64,000 bases of DNA from Dictyostelium discoideum (taxonomy: Eukaryota), in contig CM000154.2 of the NCBI GenBank assembly GCA_000004695.1, positions 2,976,001-3,040,000 on the forward strand. The letters run 5' to 3'. Both the position numbers and the translations under genes were made by a program. The first letter of the stretch is position 1, and the number at the start of each line of letters is the position of its first letter. The notes below the pieces were generated by a model, which worked only from the letters and a program-made list of their open reading frames with translations, searched no databases and had not been told where the DNA came from. This document shows, one piece after another, positions 4,432-40,634 of the stretch.

Positions 4432-5033
4432 TTTACAAAAAAGGTAGGAGACCATAACAATTCCATGTTCATTAAAGGGATCATGACAATATAGTTTTTA
4501 TCTATATTAAGTTGTGTTGTGTGTTTTTTTTTTTTTATTTTTAAAAAAAAAAAACAATGTGTGTGTTTTTTTTTTTTTTTATTTTTTAAAAAAAAAACAG
4601 TGTGTGTTTTAAAATTTTTTATTTTTATTATTTTTAAAAAAAAGGAGGGAAAAAGAAATCAAATCAATCGTTTAATAATTATATTATTTATTTATTTTAT
4701 ATTTTTTTTTTTATTTTATTTTTTTTGTTTCGGTTTTTTTTTTTATGGTTATCTGTTTTTTTCCCCGATTTTCGTCGTTTTTTTTTTTTTTCTTTAAAAA
4801 ATTTTATTAATTTTAATTAAAATTAATAAAATTTTAATACTCGATTTTTTTTCTCAAAATTATTTTTAATTTTTTTTTTTTTTTTTTTATATGTTTTGTT
4901 TAAAATCTATAAAATATTTATTTATTTATTTTTTTTTTTTTTCTCAAAATTATTTTAATTTTAATTTTTTTTTTTATAAAACAAATGTAATATATTCTAA
5001 TGTTTAAATTTGTTTATTTATAAAATTTAAAGA
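2796..5033. promoter_or_regulatory. Divergent intergenic/promoter region between tufM (-) and rrn3 (+)
   Basis: A 2.2 kb poly(A)/(T)-dominated spacer between two divergently oriented start codons. It contains a non-low-complexity island at about 4100-4500. Confidence 0.3.
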
Positions 5034-7254
5034 ATGCCAATGGAAGTACACACACAACCAACTCAAACAAATACACCAACTACTGGAAATATACCATCAT
5101 ACGAGATACTATGGAATAAAGCTATATCAAGTTCAAAACCAAATTTAGCAGATTGTAAGTTTTTATCTATAGATAAATATATATTAAATATATTCATTAA
5201 AATTAAAATTAATATTAATTTTTTTAAAATTTTTTTTTTTTAAATAATAAATAGTAATAAATTTTGATTGGACACAATCAGAACAAACAGTTAATAATTT
5301 TGTAGATTTTTTAATTAATTTGGTAACATTTAAATCAACATTTGCATTTGAATGTTTTAGTTTATTAATATCAGCATTTGAACCATACAAAATTGCAATA
5401 AAGAATCAAAGTAAAGTTTCCTATGAAAAATGGGAATTAATTTCAATGAAAGTTCATTTTTCATTTAATAAAATTTTATCAGTCATTCCATTAAGTTCAT
5501 CGATTTTAGCAAAATTAATTGTAAATAAATTTCCACATAAATCACATCCAGCCGATGTACAACATTTCTATTTAAAGAATGCATTATATGTAACACGTTA
5601 TTGTTCATCTATAACGCAAACCATTGTATCGGCTGCCGTTTCATCTATGATTCAAATCGATGTTTCCATCTCATTGGATGAGATGCCAGATGATGAAGAT
5701 TTACAATTTGATATAGAAGGTAATGCAAGTACAAATACAGCCGAGGAGCAAGAAGGTAAAATCAATGCACAAAAGTTGGATATTCTAATGAATTTAATGT
5801 TGGATTATTTCGATGTAAGGTTTGGTCTAGCTAAAAAAGATTCTGGTAATATCTTTTATTTCGATGGTTGTGAACTTCAAGATAAGTCAACTCAAGATGA
5901 CCTTTTTGCAAATTTAGTTAAAATATTCGATCAAACCATTTTACCAACTTATAAATCAAAATATACTCAATACCTTTTATTTTATATTTGTCGTATTCAA
6001 CATTTACAAAGTCATTTTCCACCATTAAATACAAATCAATCTTTATTACAACAATTTCCATCGATTAGTGCAAATAATAATAATGGTTCTTCATCATCAA
6101 ATAATAATGGTGGTGGTGGTGGACCAACTATGATGAGTACATCACCAGTATTTTTAACACCATCATTTAATAAATTAGCACAACAACATTCACCAAATTT
6201 TAGAAAATCACCAAATAGTTTTGGTAATAGTAGTGGTTTTAATAATTATTCAACAACAAATAGTGGTTCACCAAAGAAATCATTTAAAAACTTTTTACAT
6301 ATTGAACCAGTTCAATTTAGTGGCACAAATCATCGTATACTATATGCTGAATCATTTATTAGATATCTTTTTGGTAAACTTTGTAATGAAACTATTCATT
6401 CAATGCATAGACATGCTTGTGCAGCTTATATTGGTGGATTCATATCAAGAGCATCGTTTTTACCATCACATATTACTAAATTGGTTTTCAAAGATTTACT
6501 TGGTTTTGCAATGGCCTATGTTGAACGTGTCGATGTAAAGAGTAATCCAAATATTTATCCAGATCCACATAATCATTCTTTATTCTATTCAGTTTGTCAA
6601 TCGATTTATTATATATTTTGCTTTAGAAATAGTGTAATTTTAGATTTTACTGATTTCAAGAACGATAAAAAAGATGAAAAACAACGTGAGTTTTGGCAAG
6701 ATCTTCATGCTGCCTTTAGAAAGATTAGTATGTCTCGTTTAAATCCTTTCAAGGTTTGTTTGAAATCAGTTGTACGTCAATTTTGTTGTGTTTGTTTACG
6801 TGTTGGTATCTTTACTAAATGTACTGGTATCTTAAAAACAAACAAGAATGTATTATTATCAAAATCAACAATCACTGGTAGTTCTGCTGCTCCAACCGTT
6901 TCAAATAATCAATTTGATTCTTTCTTTCCTTTTGATCCTTATCTTTTATTCCATAGTAGTAAATTCTTTGCAAACTCTTATATTCATTGGAAAGATATTC
7001 GTAAGGATGGTGATGAAGAGAATTTAGAAGATCTATCCGATCAAGAAACTGATGATGAAGATGATTTATTAGATAAACTCTCCTCAGAATCTGATGATTC
7101 GGAATTTTCAGATTTTGATGGTTCTGACTCTGATTCTGACTCTGATAAAGATTGTGAAGATTCTGATTCTGAAGTTGAACAATTAGCTACATCTTTACAA
7201 AATTTCACTCCTGAACTTTATGATCTTCATTATCATTTTAAACATCGTAATTAA
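5034..7254 (+). CDS. rrn3: RNA polymerase I-specific transcription initiation factor RRN3 (TIF-IA); join(5034..5154,5255..7254), ~706 aa
   Basis: Exon 1 ends ..GAT T with a GTAAGT donor at 5155. The 100-nt AT intron ends AG at 5254. Exon 2 is in frame (T+TA = Leu) with ORF 5320..7254. The motif AAYIGGFISRASFLPSHITKLVFKDLL and FPFDPYLL match the conserved RRN3 core as I remember it from human RRN3. The C-terminal tail is acidic and Ser/Asp-rich. Confidence 0.75.
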
Positions 7255-8063
7255 TAATATAGTATAAAAAAAAAAGTATAAGTGTAAATTTTAATAAATA
7301 AATAAAAAAAAAAACAAAAAAAAAAAAAAAAATAAAAAGTAGTTGATTATCTTTATTTTGTATTTTTCTTTCTTTTTTTTTTTTTTTTTTTAATAATTTT
7401 AACCCAACTTAGGGTGTGTCCTATTTTTTTTATTAATTATTGTTAGTATTATTTTTTTATATTATTTGTTTATATAGTTAGTATTGAATATTCAGAAATA
7501 AGCAAGATTTTATAATAGATAAATTTGGTTCAACTCTGAGTCCCGCACGTGAAGATAAATTTTTCCATCATTTTTCATGATTTTGCATGTCTGCTTGAGG
7601 GTCTTTACTTCCATTTTTCTGATAAATTTTATTGATGAACATAATTTCTATTTGTATCAAAGTAAGAATTGGATGGGGATTAACCAAATTAACAAGATTC
7701 TCCAAATAGAAAATGAACCAATGCAACCGATTAACCAGATAAATTAGATAAATCAACCAAATGAAAAAATAAAATAAAAAAAATAAAATGGTCAAACAAG
7801 AAAACAATTACTTCACAAATTTCATTTACTATTATAAATAATCAAATAACTTTCCTAATTAATACAAATAAAAATAATTTATCTAAAATAAAAAAAAAAA
7901 TAAAGATTTTCAAATATCAATCCAATTAAATGAAGATGGTAGTTTCTGGATTATCCAGAAACTTAACTTTGTCAATAAAATTAAAATTAAATAAAAAATA
8001 AATAAATGAATAATAAATATAATAAAATAAATAAAAATAATAAATAAAATAAATAATGAATAA

Positions 8064-32594: not shown

Positions 32595-34724
32595 TTAGCA
32601 CTTTTTTAAAATATTGGATTTTGAAATTAGGTCAAACCAAGAATATGAAATTTCATCATCACCTTGAGAATGATTATTTACAATATGATTAATTCTATCT
32701 AAATGATTAAATATATACAGAGGTAGTGGATTATCATTTTCTTTTTTAACCAATATATTTAAATAATTAATAATTGAATGATAGGAACAAAATTCACTAA
32801 ATTTTTTAAATGATTCTTTATCCATTATTTTAAATGAAAATTCATAAACTTCTTCAGATAAATAATATACTCTACCATTAATAATTTCAATTGTTGTTTC
32901 ATCACAACATTTCTTATTTTTATTATTATTATTATTTTTTTTATTTTTATTATTATTAGAATGATAAAAATCTAATTCATTTGGGAATGAACCAATTACT
33001 AATGTTGAATTATTTTCAAATAATAATGATTGAATATAATTTAATTCTTTGAAAAATAAATCTAATCTTTTAATTTCCAATAAAAATTTTAAATTATAAT
33101 TTAATGAAAAACCAAGGAAATCATAATTAGTTGAAATGAATTCTTTATGATTAAATGATGGTGAATGAGATAGATGATGAATTAATTTCTCTAATATGTT
33201 ATCAAATGATTGATTAAATATAAAATTAAATGTGAAAACATTCTCATTTAAATATTGTTTGATATCATATTTATTAGTTTTAAAATTACCTCTATCTATA
33301 TTATAAATAATTTTATCATAATCTTGAAAATATTGAATTCCATTCTCAAATGTACCAATTAATGAATCTTCTAAATATGGATTTTCCATAACATATTTAA
33401 TAAACACCATTGATCTCTTTGAAAGATAATATATAATATGAAATAGTGAATTTGGTATTTCAATTGACGATGTTACAATTAAATTATAAATTTTACAAAT
33501 GATTTCTTTAGTTGTTTCTTTAATTTGTATTAATTTCTTAAAAAATGAATTAATTAAATTTTTTAAAGAGTTTAAATATTTAATTTTTTTATTTTCAATA
33601 GTATCATCAATTTCACCATCACCATCACTATCACTATAATTACCAGAATTAGTGTTGGCGTTATAATTGTCTTCAGTTTTTTGAATAATTTTAAAATGAT
33701 TAATTAAAATTTCAATTATATTTATTAAATCATTTAAAGATTCTTCTGTACTTGTTGATCTATAAAATTCTATATCATCATTAAAATTATTAATGAAATA
33801 ATTATCTAATTCTGAATTATTTGAGTAAACATAACCTTTTTCAATTAAATTATAATTATTTAAAATGAAATCAAGTGTTTTTGGTAAATAATTCTTAATC
33901 GAATAATTGAATAATTGAATAATATTGATTGATTTATCAAGTTTTTTAAAATTGAATGAAACTTTCGATAAATCAAAATTTGGATAATCAATTTCAATAA
34001 TCAATTTCATTATTTCATTAATAAATTTAGATGGGAACTTTTTAATATTTTTAAATAAATATTTAACTAAATTATTTATATCTTGAGTGAAAGTTTCACC
34101 ACCACTACTATTTTCAAATTTAATTTCTTGTTGATGTTTTTTTAAATTTGTTATTGTTGGAACTTGAAAATCAATAATATTTGTAATTATATAATCTAAT
34201 GTTATTATATCACATTTTTCAATTGCTTTAATGAATGGATAAATAAAAATGATTGATTTTTCAATTTTATAATTTTCAAAAAATGAAAAATTAAAACAAC
34301 AATCTTTTTTAGTTGATTCAAATTTACTATTTGCATAAATTGATAATTCTAAAGTTTCATAATTAAAAATTGATTTAATTTTATATTGTTCAACTTTTTT
34401 AATTATCTCTTGATAGGTACCTTTTAAATTTGAATTTAAAACAATAAAATCAATTGTTGATTTATCATTTGCCATTATTTCAAATTTACCATCCCAATTT
34501 AAAATTTTATTTAAAATTGGATTCCAACCATTTGGTATTGATTTAATAAACCTTTTTAAAGAAATTTCTGAAATTGATTTAACTAATTCATTAAATTCCT
34601 CTTCATTTCTAGAATTATTAATTAATTCACAAATAATTTTATCAAATTCTTTATTTATAAATATTAATTGTGATGTATATAAATTAATGAATTTATAAAT
34701 TTTTTCCATTCCATAGTTATTATT

Positions 34725-34795
<71 letters not shown>

Positions 34796-35873
34796 GAATA
34801 GTTTTAATATCAGCCATTGGGAAATTTAAATTTTTATTCCAATTACTAAAATCTCTATTTGTTGATTTTGTTTTAAATTCTGTTAATAACCATTGAAATG
34901 TTGATATATTAAAAGTTGATAAACTAAATTGGTAAACTAATAGTCCATTTAATCCATTATCAATTATTTCACCATATTTTAAAAGATAGTTTTTATAAGC
35001 TAAAAAGTTTTTATGTTCGTTTAATAATTCTATTGAATAAAGTTTAAAAATTGTTTTAATTTTATCATTGGAAGTAGTATTTTCACATTGTAATATTTCT
35101 TTAAACTCTTTTGAATTTGAATTGGTTTCACCTGAAATTGTATAATAATAATTGATATTTAATAATTTAATTGATAATTCACTTGAATTTAAAGAAAGAA
35201 TATCAATTAAATCAATCTTTGCAATTTTATCACTACTACTTCTAGTTAAACCTATTGGTTTAATTGAGTATGTTTTTTCATTATCTAATATTAATTTTAT
35301 CATTTGTTCTTTATATTTTTCATTTGAGAATGCGAGTTTAATAGAATTGAATTTTATTTTATTTGAAATTTTTAAATTGGGTGAATTAATTAATAATTTT
35401 ACAATTTCAAATGATGAATTTGATATTGCCCATTCCAAAGTTTTCTCTCCAATATTGAATGAATTTGAATTAATTAGTTTTTCAATTATTTCAATTTGTT
35501 GTTCTTTATTTTTTGAAATTATTAAAAATAAAAAATCAAAATCAATTATTGATTTAATTTCAATACTCTTTTTTTCAATTAATAATAATATTAATTCCTT
35601 TTTTAATTCTTTATCTTTAATTAAAAGTAAAAGAGATATTGAGTATTTTGAAATCTCTAAATTTTCATTTAATTTTAATTTATATTTCAATAGTTGATAA
35701 TGTTTATTGACCAATATCCATTCTAATGAATTAACATCTTTAAATCTCTTTTTATTTTCTATATGAATTTGAGAGTATTCATTATATTCTTCCCATTCAA
35801 TATTTTTTATATAATTTAATATTTTATAAAATAAAACTTTGTTACGTATAATCTTCCAAAATAATATTTCCAT
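32595..35873 (-). CDS. Large N/K-rich lineage-specific protein (1092 aa), family member A, with a conserved N-terminal F-W-K/R motif and ankyrin-like repeats
   Basis: Single long ORF. The N-terminus is MEILFWKIIRNKVLFYKILNYIKNI. Internal blocks LEWAISNSSFEIVKLLINSPNL, NYKNYLLKYGEIID and EKLIHHLSHSPSFNHKEF..NYNLKFLLEIKRLDLFFKELNYIQSLL are shared with the downstream paralog. Confidence 0.6.
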
Positions 35874-36970
35874 TTCGGTCAGTCAATTTAAAATAAAAAT
35901 AAAAAAAAAAAAAAAATAATTTATAAAAAAAAATAAAAAAGTGATGGTTTTTTTTTTGTAAAAAAGACAAGAAAAAAAAAAGAAAATGTAAAAGTATTTT
36001 TTTTTTTTAATTTTTTTATTTTTATATTTATCAATTATCTTTATCTTTTTTTTTTTTTTTGGTTAACAGTTTTTTTTATTTATTTTTATTTGGGGATAAC
36101 TGATTCAAATTATAGTATACTTTTTTTTTTTTTTTTTTTTTTACAATCACTCTCACCAAAACCACCACAACCACCACAACTACCACAACCACCAACAAAT
36201 GTCGCTGCTTCCTTATCTCGCCAAGTGGCGCTTTATCTTATAGTTTCATTACAGTAACTCAATTCAATTTCATTAACTTTAATTGTCTTCTTGATTCAAC
36301 CAAAACCGATAGAAGAACTGATATTCCTAAAGATAAATACAAAACAGTCAATACATAATCATATTGTATCAAGATGATCATCCCACCAGCACATTTTCAA
36401 CAAGTTATTCGATCTCAAGATTCTCCATTTTCAACAAGTTATTCGATCTCACTACCGCATCTATTATTAATGCCAACCTTGGTTTCATTTCACCTTTGAC
36501 TGTTGATAAACTTGCTTGGTTTGATCCATTTACCAACATCTCCCAACATTACCATGACAAATTTAGATTTACAAGGAAAACCAATCAACTGTTAAGGACT
36601 CAAATGGATTCCACCAATTTGTTAATGGTAACTATTGTATGAATGGAAATTATAGATTCGATAACAATCAAAACCAGCTCCAGTTACAAATCAATCCAAA
36701 CAGAAATCAATAGACCAATCTTGTTTAGTTCACAATCTCCTATAATACTCGCCAAGATAACAAAGAAAATCACCAAGTCAAAATGATAAAAAATAAGTGA
36801 TTTATCATTAGTTTTTATTATTAAATTTTAATAAAAACAATAACCGATCCGATAAAATTAAAAAATAACAAAAAACTAACAATAATAAAACTAATAAACA
36901 TTATTTAAATTTAAAAAATGTTAATACATATAAAATTTTAATTTTAATTTTAATTTAATTTTTTTAATTT

Positions 36971-37025
<55 letters not shown>

Positions 37026-37031
37026 CTAAAA

Positions 37032-39952
37032 TTACAAAAGCCAACTAATGAATCTAAAAGGATGGTGATTTTCTTTTGAGTTTAATTTTTGTGACAATTT
37101 TAATTTTAAAAATTGTATATTATCTTGATTTAAATAACCAAAATCATATAAATAATTTACAAAATTAAAATTAGAGGTTTTATATGCTTGATTTAATAAT
37201 TCATCATCAATTTGAAAATAATAATGGTTTGGAAAATTGTTTAAAACTAATTCTCTTAAGGGAATATTAAACTTTCCAGATTTATTCAATTTTTCTAAAA
37301 TTAAATCCATTAACTCACTATGATTATTATTACCAAAAAAAAAATTTGAATATTTAATTATTGTATTTTCGCTAATGTTTATATTAAAAACTTTATACCA
37401 AAAGTTTTTTAAATTATCATCATTTTGAGTATTAATTATTTGATTATTAATAATTTGATCGATTAGTTGTGAATGATCTAAAATTAAATCTAAAACACTT
37501 TTTGAAGATATTTCTGAATATTTAAAATTTTTAGTTTTACTTAAATAGTCTATAAATGAAAGATATGAATATGATTTTACAAATACAGAAAATGTATGAG
37601 TATCCATTAAAAACAATAAAGTTTTAAAAATAAATGGTGAAATAGGAAAATAAATAAAGTAACCATCATCTTTGATTAATTCATTATAAACATCCCTTTT
37701 AAAATAATTATTTTTTGTATTATTATTATTATTATTATTATTAATATCTTCTTGAATTTCATCTGGTATTTTTAAAAGTTTCGAGAAAGAAACTAATGGA
37801 ACTGTTTTATCTTTTAATAGTTTTTGAATGTAATTTAATTCATTAAAAAATAAATCTACTCTTTTAATTTCTAAAAGGTATTCTAAATTATAATTAAAAG
37901 TTTTAAAAAGGTAATTGTTTTCATGAATTACCATTTTATCATTGAAATAAGGTAAATGTGATACTTCATGAATTAATCTTTCTAAAACTATTGAAAATGG
38001 AGGTGGTTGAGCAAATTCATTTAAACTATTACTATTATTACCAAAAATGAATTCCCAAGTAAAGATATTTGATTTTAAATATTTTCCAATATCATAACCA
38101 TTATGATCATATATCTTTTCAGAATTATAATTTGGTATATTTTTTGATTTTAAAAGTTTTCCAATGAATGGTAATTTTATTAAGTATTGAATAAATTCTT
38201 GTGATTTTAATCCTAAATAATAAAAACTATGAAATAGAGAATGTTCTAAACTTATTGAATTATCTAATATTAATCTACGAATTTTTTCAACATCTTTAAA
38301 TTTTACATCATCAATTTTAATTAAACATCTAAATAAACGGTTAATTAATTTTTCTAAAATCTGATTATCTTTTGATGTCGTTGTCGTTGTTGTTGTTGAT
38401 GTTATTTTAAAGGATTTTATTAATGTTTCAATACATTCAATAACATGTTTTGGATTTTGACAAGTTGTTGGAACATAAACTTGATAATAATCATTATCAT
38501 TCATTTCTCCAGTTTCATAATAATAATCTTCATATATATATGAAAGAATTGAATTATTTGTAAATAATGAATCTAAATCTAATTTTGATAATGATGGTAA
38601 TAAAATCATTTGAAAATCATTTGAAAAACCATTCACTAGTTTAGTCATTAAAAGTGGTGATAATTCGTCAAATTTCTTTGAATATTGTTGAAATTGATCA
38701 TTAAATTTAATTTTAATTTTATCACTATTAAATTTAAAATCAAATAAAAACTTTTCAAATGTTTTTTCATTAAATGCTTTATAACCACTGTCATTTAAAT
38801 AATTTATTAATTTCTCTTGATTTTCAATTGTTGTGGTTTCATTTAAATTATTAAATGAATCTTTAAATTCTCTTTTATAGATTTTATAATAGCTATAATT
38901 TTCATCCGAATTTTGATTACTACTAAAAATCATATCATTTTCAAGTTTAAAACCCAATACATTTTCATCAATGAATTTTAATGTTTCAATATCATAATTA
39001 TTAATTGCATTGATATAAGTTTGATGATATAATAAACATTTGTAGAAATAACTATCACCATTTAAACTCTTTGGATAATATAGTATTGATGATTTGTCTG
39101 AAAATGCATCAATTGCATATTGTATTAATTCTAAACTTTCAAATTGAAATAATTCTCTAGTTGTAAAACTTCTTAATTTCTCTTTTAATAGGAATCCATT
39201 ACAATTCTCTAATATCCAATCAAACTTTTCTTTATTATTAATATAGATTTTTGAATAATTAAAACCCCAATTAGATAAATCAATTAAAACTTGATTCCAA
39301 CATTTTGGATATAAACTAATTGGTATTGAATTGATTTTACTATTTGGTGAAATTGAATTATAAACTCTTTCATATTCTTCACTTGTTTTTGATGATAATA
39401 AAAGTTGTTTAATTTCTTGATCAACATCTATATTTCTAAATGCAAGACATTCACTTTGTTTTGTATAGTATTCAATAAATTCATATGTAGATTCAAGTTC
39501 TCTTTTAATATTATTTTTTTTATTATCTAATGATATACTTTCAATTATTAGTTTTACTGTTAAGAAATTAAATGATGCTTTTTTATCTTTATCTGATGTT
39601 ACTGTTTTTGAGATTACCCATTTAAAAGTTTTTGGTTCAAAATTTAAAAAACTAAATTGAATTACAATCTCTAAATATTCAATATCTAAATCTTCAATTG
39701 GTTCAAAATATTTTAAAAGATAATTTTTATAATTATTTTTATCTTTTTTTACTAATATCTTAAAAACTTCTTTTATTTTATTTTCACTCTTATCATTTTT
39801 AATAATTTCTTTAATTTCATCATGATTTGAATTGTTGAAATAATTTAAATTTAATAATTGATTTATTATTTTTGAATCTTTTATAAATAGAAATTTATTT
39901 ATATCTGGAATTTTTTTTATTGATTGAAAGTTATTAAAATCATTATTATTAT

Positions 39953-39983
<31 letters not shown>

Positions 39984-40634
39984 ATTATAAAATTTATTTA
40001 ATAATAATCCAATAATTAATTCTTTATGATTATCATTATTATTATTACGAGTAAATGCTAAACTAATTGATCTATTCTTTAATTCTTCTGTTATTATTAA
40101 ATTATGTGAATTTACTAAAATATCTACCATTTGATAAGAACAATTTAAAATTACCCACTCTAAAACTGATGGGAAAATTTTAATTGAAAATGGTTCATTT
40201 AATAAAATTTCTACAGCATCATAATTTTCAACTCTTTTTTTATTATTTAAATCTTCAATTTCTAATGCTATTGATAATAAATCGAATTGAAGTAATTCTA
40301 ATTTCTTTTTTTCATATAATAAATTAAATATTTCTTTTATTTCATCTTCATTATTATTATTATTTAATCTGAATAATTTTTGAAATGAACTTTTTGATAG
40401 ATCAATATATTCATTTGCTTTTAATTTACATATTAATAGTTGGTATTGTTTCATTTTTAACATCAATTCCATTGATGTTAAATGTTTGAATTTAATTTGA
40501 CTACTTCTATTAATACCAACAACTTCAACCCTTTCTAATATTAATTTAAGTAAATATACATTATGTATAACTTTCCAAAATATTGGTTCATTATCGCTAT
40601 TAAATTTTTTAACTTTATTACAATTGTTTATCAT
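37032..40634 (-). CDS. Large N/K-rich lineage-specific protein (1200 aa), family member B, tandem paralog of 32595..35873
   Basis: Single long ORF. It has EPIFWKVIHNVYLLKLILERV near the N-terminus, then LEWVILNCSYQMVDILVNSHNL, NYKNYLLKYFEPIED and ERLIHEVSHLPYFNDKMV..NYNLEYLLEIKRVDLFFNELNYIQKLL. These are co-linear with the upstream paralog. Confidence 0.6.

Follow-up and report, generated by a model that had tools for sequence, protein, structure and literature searches.

Between two large paralogous genes of Dictyostelium discoideum lies a short block of DNA that is markedly richer in GC than the spacers around it, which raises the question of what this block is and where it came from. The first-pass annotation of the window (the whole stretch of 64,000 nucleotides, or 64 kb, analyzed here) had described it as a compositionally foreign, non-repetitive segment of ~0.7 kb with a GC content of ~40%, starting at position 36130, and had proposed a degenerate transposon or retroelement, an unannotated ncRNA gene or a relic exon. 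Much of this description is confirmed: a GC-richer block of this length is real, it lies between the stop codon of a 1200-aa gene on one side and the start codon of a 1092-aa gene on the other, the three sequence strings quoted from it are located at 36148, 36201 and 36306, and it contains no long ORF, the longest being one of 92 aa (36364..36642). The block proper, however, begins at 36143, past a run of 22 T, and ends at about 36800; its GC content is 33–34% rather than ~40%, to be compared with 22% for the whole window and with 12 and 7% for the spacers on its two sides. Its plus strand contains far more C than G (154 vs 69), and its 5' end (36158–36196) is an ACC/ACA/CAA-type repeat, so the block is not fully non-repetitive.

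The term "foreign" turned out to be a misnomer. Scanning the whole window, we found that every other 650-nt stretch with a GC content of at least 0.33 lies within a long ORF, which indicates that the composition of the block is that of the coding sequence of the host genome itself; its 34% GC would be a leftover of coding composition that has yet to fall as low as in the AT-rich spacers. Chromosome CM142511.1 of assembly GCA_054883475.1 (L001) shares 99.4% identity with the window, and its annotation leaves the block without a gene call. No second copy of the block was found within the window by blastn and tblastx, both of which returned only low-complexity ACC and poly-T matches.

On the evidence set out below, window 36143–36800 is very probably a non-functional, plus-sense fragment of a colossin-like gene, i.e. 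of a gene for SdrD_B/Cna_B-type repeats of prealbumin fold. The relic, as we call it, and its surroundings are composed as follows, in genomic order:

32595..35873, minus strand: flanking paralog of 1092 aa, outside the relic, its start codon 270 nt away from it.
36121..36142, no strand: T22 run within the AT-rich spacer that precedes the 1092-aa gene, left boundary of the relic.
36143..36157, plus strand: conserved 5' edge ACAATCACTCTCACC, of which CACTCTCACC is invariant in all three aligned copies.
36158..36196, plus strand: ACC/ACA/CAA repeat, what is left of a low-complexity stretch rich in Thr or in Pro/Gln.
36230..36358, plus strand: ALSYSFITVTQFNFINFNCLLDSTKTDRRTDIPKDKYKTVNT (TDRRTDIPKDKYKTVNT), frame 1, followed by a TAA stop; placed by eye.
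36359..36430, plus strand: SYCIKMIIPPAHFQQVIRSQDSPF, frame 1, the best-preserved piece, at positions 58–83 of the repeat HMM (consensus DYCVSATIPEGYKAVNTSSDSVF).
36392..36451, plus strand: direct repeat, two exact 26-nt copies (36392–36417 and 36426–36451) with a period of 34.
36442..36537, plus strand: FDLTTASIINANLGFISPLTVDKLAWFDPFTN, frame 0, where one repeat ends and its successor begins; cf. CFTITDESILDANLGLVPLYTIGDDVWLDPFN in the Polysphondylium protein P0006.
36536..36589, plus strand: TSPNITMTNLDLQGKPIN, frame 1, with a terminal stop common to all three copies.
36585..36641, plus strand: STVKDSNGFHQFVNGNYCM, frame 2, consensus TTTTDANGKY...APGDYCV.
36642..36701, plus strand: NGNYRFDNNQNQLQLQINPN, frame 2, core motif of a further repeat, fuller in copy 1 of assembly L002 (TTTSDENGNYRFDN).
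36702..36800, plus strand: 3' tail of the relic, aligning to L002 copy 1, with no recognizable reading frame and followed by A-rich spacer.
37032..40634, minus strand: flanking paralog of 1200 aa, its stop codon lying past an AT-rich spacer and a T53 run (36973–37025).

The assignment to the colossin-like family was obtained from both the protein and the DNA side. A homologous block in a divergent D. discoideum assembly (L002, described below) carries an annotated 155-aa product, KAM9974701.1 (P0005), whose sequence we reconstructed and which is present in the protein collection. In a HMMER search against 1.84 billion representatives, P0005 matched the 3208-aa protein KAF2069556.1 of Polysphondylium violaceum (P0006) over eight stretches with an E value of 3e-15, and a second protein of 4342 aa (P0007) with an E value of 2e-10. 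Both are chains of 24–28 Pfam SdrD_B domains, to which CarboxypepD_reg, SpaA and Cna_B match too, which is how the Dictyostelium colossins are built. P0006 was compared with the entire 64-kb window by tblastn and matched at a single place, 36362–36641 on the plus strand, in frames 2, 1 and 3 (E 9e-7); the best E value in 150 dinucleotide shuffles of the block, used as a control, was 0.15. Similarity to bona fide SdrD_B-repeat proteins is thus present in both comparisons, and the suggestion of a relic exon was essentially right, as tblastn and HMM alike place the block in a colossin-like gene with SdrD_B/Cna_B repeats.

The HMM was built from 21 repeats of P0006 and searched against 6569 stop-to-stop six-frame fragments of the window, of L002 and of a further locus (L004). 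The top 13 matches among these 6569 fragments all fall in the three copies of the block and on one strand, the best in the window being 36359–36496 (hmmsearch E 0.0056 among the 6569 fragments). Note that neither the window nor the L002 copies score high enough against SdrD_B or Cna_B to pass the Pfam gathering threshold: the stitched translation of the window has no Pfam match, that of L002 copy 1 scores 20 bits against SdrD_B (E 8e-4), below the gathering score of 29.7, unbiased six-frame Pfam scans gave noise-level matches only, and P0005 itself has no Pfam match at E values up to 0.01. A search of PDB sequences with L002 copy 1 gave the UafA B domain as its best match, with E 0.31. Two six-frame protein searches with X-joined queries returned nothing; we give them no weight, since they missed P0005, which is in the collection and shares long identical stretches with one of the queries that missed it, and the protein searches also failed to return the window's own 1092-aa protein, likewise in the collection. 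We also considered a Gly/Cys-rich gene of the hssA/2C/7E type on the minus strand, where the ACC repeat reads GGCGGCGG, and rejected it, all profile and tblastn matches being on the plus strand.

The pieces of the relic are collinear but lie in frames 1, 1, 0, 1, 2 and 2 with stops in between, and all the repeat units in the window are partial. Matches by tblastn or HMM were obtained for three of them (SYCIKM..., FDLTT... and STVKDSNG...), at HMM positions 58–83, 56–107 and then 39–61 of the next unit; the others (36230–36358, 36536–36589 and 36642–36701) were assigned by visual comparison with the P0006 repeat or by way of the L002 copy. The first of the matched pieces, SYCIKMIIPPAHFQQVIRSQDSPF, is 52–56% identical to P0006, and the following one, FDLTTASIINANLGFISPLTVDKLAWFDPFTN, which is contained in the 92-aa ORF, 39–42%; the E value of 9e-7 is summed over these two. 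The order of SYCIKMIIPPAHFQQVIRSQDSPF, FDLTTASIINANLGFISPLTVDKLAWFDPF and KDSNGFHQFVNGNYCM in the window is the one found in the P0006 repeat ...GDYCVSMTIPAHYKQVATSPDSPFDSDTKYCFTITDESILDANLGLVPLYTIGDDVWLDPFN...TTTDNKGVYKFPDVAPGNYCI. Among the pieces placed by eye, 36230..36358 may be read as the first half of an SdrD_B-like repeat (DGKY...PGDYC region) and TSPNITMTNLDLQGKPIN as the putative V.LTLTDKDGNPIA strand of the following repeat; neither gave a statistical match of its own. At the position of the TAA stop that ends 36230..36358, L002 copy 2 has AAA (Lys), and the counterpart of this piece lies within the near-open frame of that copy. The L002 fragment 6278–6201, counterpart of the NGNYRFDNNQNQLQLQINPN region, matches the repeat HMM with E 7e-4, and Pfam CarboxypepD_reg has an E value of 0.035 on the motif of 36642..36701.

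Assembly L002 (GCA_054859355.1) is a divergent D. discoideum assembly, one of those reached by searching with the 1092-aa neighbor and retrieving the loci of its relatives; at third codon positions of PI3K, it differs from the window by 7.4%, compared with 20.9% for D. citrinum. Its spacer at the same place measures 2121 bp and carries a block of ~1.6 kb with a GC content of up to 0.58. Three segments of the window align to it: 35890–36157 to L002 7985–7721, 36154–36643 to L002 6809–6317 with 84.5% identity, and 36642–37024 to L002 6239–5910. Relative to this copy 1, the window is without ~930 bp after the CACTCTCACC edge (junction 36157/36158) and without 78 bp at junction 36641/36642, and we suggest that the window lineage lost both the ~930 bp at the 5' side and the 78 bp internally. 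The low-complexity stretch at the 5' end is much longer in L002 copy 1, with GC up to 58%, and a T-run is likewise present at the 5' edge of this copy.

A second copy lies at 2040–1060 of L002 and is missing segments that differ from those missing elsewhere. It arose by a tandem segmental duplication including the 3' end of the neighboring paralog, not by transposition. On the strand equivalent to the plus strand of the window, it contains a 211-codon frame with one stop, the first 114 codons of which score 0.19 bits per codon on host codon usage, a value equal to that of real genes here. The L002 annotation calls genes of 155 aa and 219 aa in the homologous blocks. These models (KAM9974701.1, the product of copy 2 with its one 59-nt "intron", and the 219-aa gene) look dubious, since they skip stops only through odd introns, 59, 92 and 95 nt long. 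No intact parent gene was found nearby when L002 copy 1 was compared by tblastx with all the fetched loci.

The comparison of copies also documents how the sequence has changed. Some stops are shared by all three of them, for example after ...QGKPIN[Y/C], and each copy is missing a different part. Between the window and L002, the block diverges by 10–12% with 14–17 gap events per kb, to be set against 3.3–3.8% and 1.9–3.1 gap events per kb for the flanking genes, 3.7–7.4% for third codon positions, those of the flanking genes being at 3.7–5.3%, and 10–16% with 20–35 gap events per kb for the AT-rich spacers. Divergence is thus at the level of spacers, with no visible constraint, and disabling mutations go together with a divergence not slower than that of unconstrained DNA, as in a pseudogene. 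Since some stops are common to all three copies, the sequence would have been disabled by the time the window and L002 lineages of D. discoideum parted, and would then have decayed without constraint; the relic probably has no function.

Substitutions that could be polarised among the copies comprise 14 from GC to AT and 15 from AT to GC; the numbers are small. They are less AT-biased than expected under free decay in a genome of 22% GC.

The internal direct repeat belongs to this history of change. It had been reported as a 24-nt repeat occurring twice, and the 24-mer is indeed present at 36394 and 36428, the exact repeat being 26 nt long with a period of 34 nt. Both L002 copies read ...CTCCATTT-AAGAACAGTATAATTTATTGTTTCGATTTCAC-TAC..., and the window has a second TCAACAAGTTATTCGATCTCAC at that position: the second 26-nt copy stands in place of 32 nt, AAGAACAGTATAATTTATTGTTTCGATTTCAC, that are common to the two L002 copies and encode KNSIIYCFDF, which itself matches K-YCFT of the protein repeat. 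The net change in the window is −10 nt and thus accounts for one of the frame shifts. The two sites have in common the short homologies CATTT and CGAT(C/T)TCAC. Comparison with L002 marks the direct repeat as secondary and private to the window lineage, a putative templated duplication that is neither original nor conserved. It could have formed by a local template switch or by slippage, in which 22 nt were copied onto the neighboring stretch, resulting in the exact 26-nt direct repeat.

To place the arrival of the block in time, we compared sister species. The same pair of paralogs is separated by a plain AT-rich spacer of 412 bp in D. firmibasis and of 219 bp in D. citrinum, with no block in either. 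By parsimony, this absence points to an insertion in the D. discoideum lineage, which is probably a better account than an ancestral gene lost elsewhere; the species tree on which this argument depends is assumed here. A piece of a colossin-like gene of at least 1.6 kb would then have been inserted once the D. discoideum lineage had separated from D. citrinum. An AT-rich, intron-like stretch at the 5' side of the L002 copies may hint at arrival as a DNA-level copy.

Several other readings of the block have to be weighed against that of an inert relic. One of them shares its origin and departs from it on function: the relic may not be wholly inert and may supply the material from which a new transcript or small ORF could evolve, or may influence the fast-evolving 1092-aa paralog as a promoter element or in antisense. 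A piece of a colossin gene could in that case have been captured recently into a double-strand break between the tandem paralogs. The hints for it come down to the low AT bias of substitutions and to L002 copy 2 being nearly open (211 codons, annotated as a 155-aa protein), and we consider it very unlikely.

An origin from a Dictyostelium transposon or retroelement, of which the block would be a fragment or which would have carried a gene piece here, is very unlikely. Its restriction to one lineage, with absence from D. citrinum and D. firmibasis, would suit a mobile element, and the T-runs at its flanks together with the A-rich tail on the sense strand could fit a retro-copy; runs of A and T are, however, ubiquitous in these spacers, and the coding similarity is to SdrD_B-repeat proteins and not to transposon proteins. 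Neither L002 copy 1 nor the window copy showed terminal repeats (LTR, ITR or TIR, whether inverted or long and direct): comparison of their ends gave only chance matches of 7–17 nt with E values of at least 0.2, and the inverted repeats that were detected are pairs of A-runs and T-runs. TRE elements target tRNA genes, and the 64-kb window contains none. With the extra L002 copy explained by a segmental duplication that took in the 3' end of the neighbor gene, the proposed degenerate transposon or retroelement finds no support in these tests, which covered terminal repeats, tRNA genes and further copies within the window and L002.

A very small probability likewise attaches to the block being an ncRNA gene, or the relic having been co-opted to act on the 1092-aa gene in the form of a long non-coding or antisense RNA. 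GC-richer islands in AT-rich spacers are typical of expressed sequence in this genome, the block sits 270 nt upstream of the 1092-aa gene and antisense to it, and its substitutions are not strongly AT-biased. Against this, no Rfam family was matched at the gathering score in the whole window, the best relaxed match on the block (E 0.16) being far below threshold, and its folding showed no excess stability over dinucleotide shuffles on either strand (z +0.68 and +0.90). Nor do the block copies show conservation above the neutral background: their divergence is spacer-like, deletions of 78 to ~930 bp separate the three of them, and the two sister species lack the block. The unannotated ncRNA gene suggested earlier thus finds no support in these data.

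Lying between the two genes, the block is on the path of either transcript and might be taken for the 3' UTR of the 1200-aa gene, or for a 5' UTR, a non-coding first exon or a promoter belonging to the 1092-aa gene. This is highly improbable: the coding relic reads in the direction opposite to both genes, 270 nt of AT-rich spacer separate the block from the start codon, and the D. citrinum and D. firmibasis gene pairs do without it.

Finally, the block almost certainly does not encode a live small protein such as the 92-aa ORF (36364..36642): the genes annotated in the homologous L002 blocks, which would speak for one, need their three short introns against stops, the period-3 signal of the window block (z 4.7) is not seen in the corresponding segment of L002 copy 1 and was not counted as evidence, the 92-aa ORF has TTG as its start and crosses the lineage-specific repeat, which puts its beginning in a frame other than the ancestral one, codon-usage log-likelihood showed no gene-like frame among the six of the window block, the window ORFs of the block are all missing from a collection of 15 billion proteins, and no intact ORF with a start codon was found in the block, with its stops between pieces and no L001 gene call.

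The inert relic of a colossin-like gene can be compared with known systems. ColA is described as a slug structural protein of hundreds of Cna_B repeats and a candidate for transfer from bacteria (PMC3188802). The colossins (ColA, DDB_G0292696) and P0006 have repeats of the type seen in the relic (Pfam SdrD_B, Cna_B or CarboxypepD_reg, with a prealbumin-like fold). Unlike the colossins, the relic in the window lacks a start codon, is interrupted by stops and changes frame at least three times within 400 nt; it keeps only ~2–3 partial repeats, and sits alone between unrelated genes. It resembles gene-fragment pseudogenes in that it is homologous to a functional family, carries disabling mutations, diverges like spacer DNA, has deletions specific to each copy and was passively duplicated with its surroundings in L002; with respect to such pseudogenes, its arrival could have been an ectopic insertion at the DNA level or a retro-copy. 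It also shares the motif TTT-D-x-G-x-Y-x-F-D-N-L-x-x-G-D-Y with the B domains of the bacterial adhesins SdrD and UafA, a distant similarity, under curated thresholds, that marks the fold family and is silent on origin.

The practical value of this identification is modest. It accounts for an odd GC island with no need of a new element, and adds an unannotated pseudogene fragment to the map of D. discoideum. In its three copies, the ways in which dead sequence changes are on display: large deletions, in- and out-of-frame indels, a templated micro-duplication and a passive tandem duplication. The colossin family may derive from bacterial Cna_B domains, and the relic would be a small marker of the ectopic movement of colossin-family sequence.

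The divergent D. discoideum assembly L002 (GCA_054859355.1) carries an extra tandem segmental duplication in its lineage (L002 1-2130 versus 4950-7800, 92% identical). The 1205-aa-like gene contributes its 3' end to the duplicated unit, which also includes the relic of a colossin-like gene and ~60 nt of spacer. Three paralogs consequently stand in a row in L002 after the segmental duplication, versus two in the window, and the latter were compared with their L002 orthologs:

Window 37032-40634, minus strand: 1200-aa paralog, compared with L002 2264-5881
Window 32595-35873, minus strand: 1092-aa paralog, compared with L002 8001-11219

For the 1200-aa paralog, codon positions 1, 2 and 3 differ equally from the ortholog (0.039, 0.037 and 0.037, respectively), and purifying selection is thus not visible. 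The corresponding values for the 1092-aa paralog are 0.024, 0.022 and 0.053, and these codon-position differences show only mild constraint. No Pfam domain was found in either paralog, the only hint being a faint ankyrin signal in the D. firmibasis ortholog. Note that the homology search with the 1092-aa protein failed to recover that same protein, and the one with the X-joined frames missed KAM9974701.1, both present in the collection; negatives of this protein homology search for D. discoideum need careful reading.

Two T-runs lie around the relic in the window:

Window 36973-37025: T53 run, starting six bases past the end of the 1200-aa gene
Window 36121-36142: T22 run, abutting the 5' edge of the relic

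The corresponding runs in L002 are shorter or interrupted, indicating that they are length-variable. Elsewhere in the window, an ORF at 25963-26805 (plus strand) has a very long Asn-rich low-complexity core and internal tandem repeats; this ORF gives many off-diagonal matches (window 26185-26460) of ~90% identity when the window is compared with L001, a second D. discoideum assembly (GCA_054883475.1).

Within the relic, substitutions were polarised on the two L002 branches using the three-copy alignment (window 36100-36830, L002 6080-7760 and L002 1060-2060), giving 14 GC to AT and 15 AT to GC changes, a small sample in which alignment error is possible. Free decay of the relic toward the ~13% GC composition of the spacer would be expected to give about 73% GC to AT.

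Both L002 relic copies bear gene models:

L002 1339-1865, minus strand: 155-aa model (KAM9974701.1)
L002 6365-7211, minus strand: 219-aa model

The reconstructed 219-aa model is absent from the protein collection, and PPQ low complexity makes up most of it. Stops are skipped in the two models only via introns of 59, 92 and 95 nt, and both look like gene-prediction artefacts on pseudogenes.
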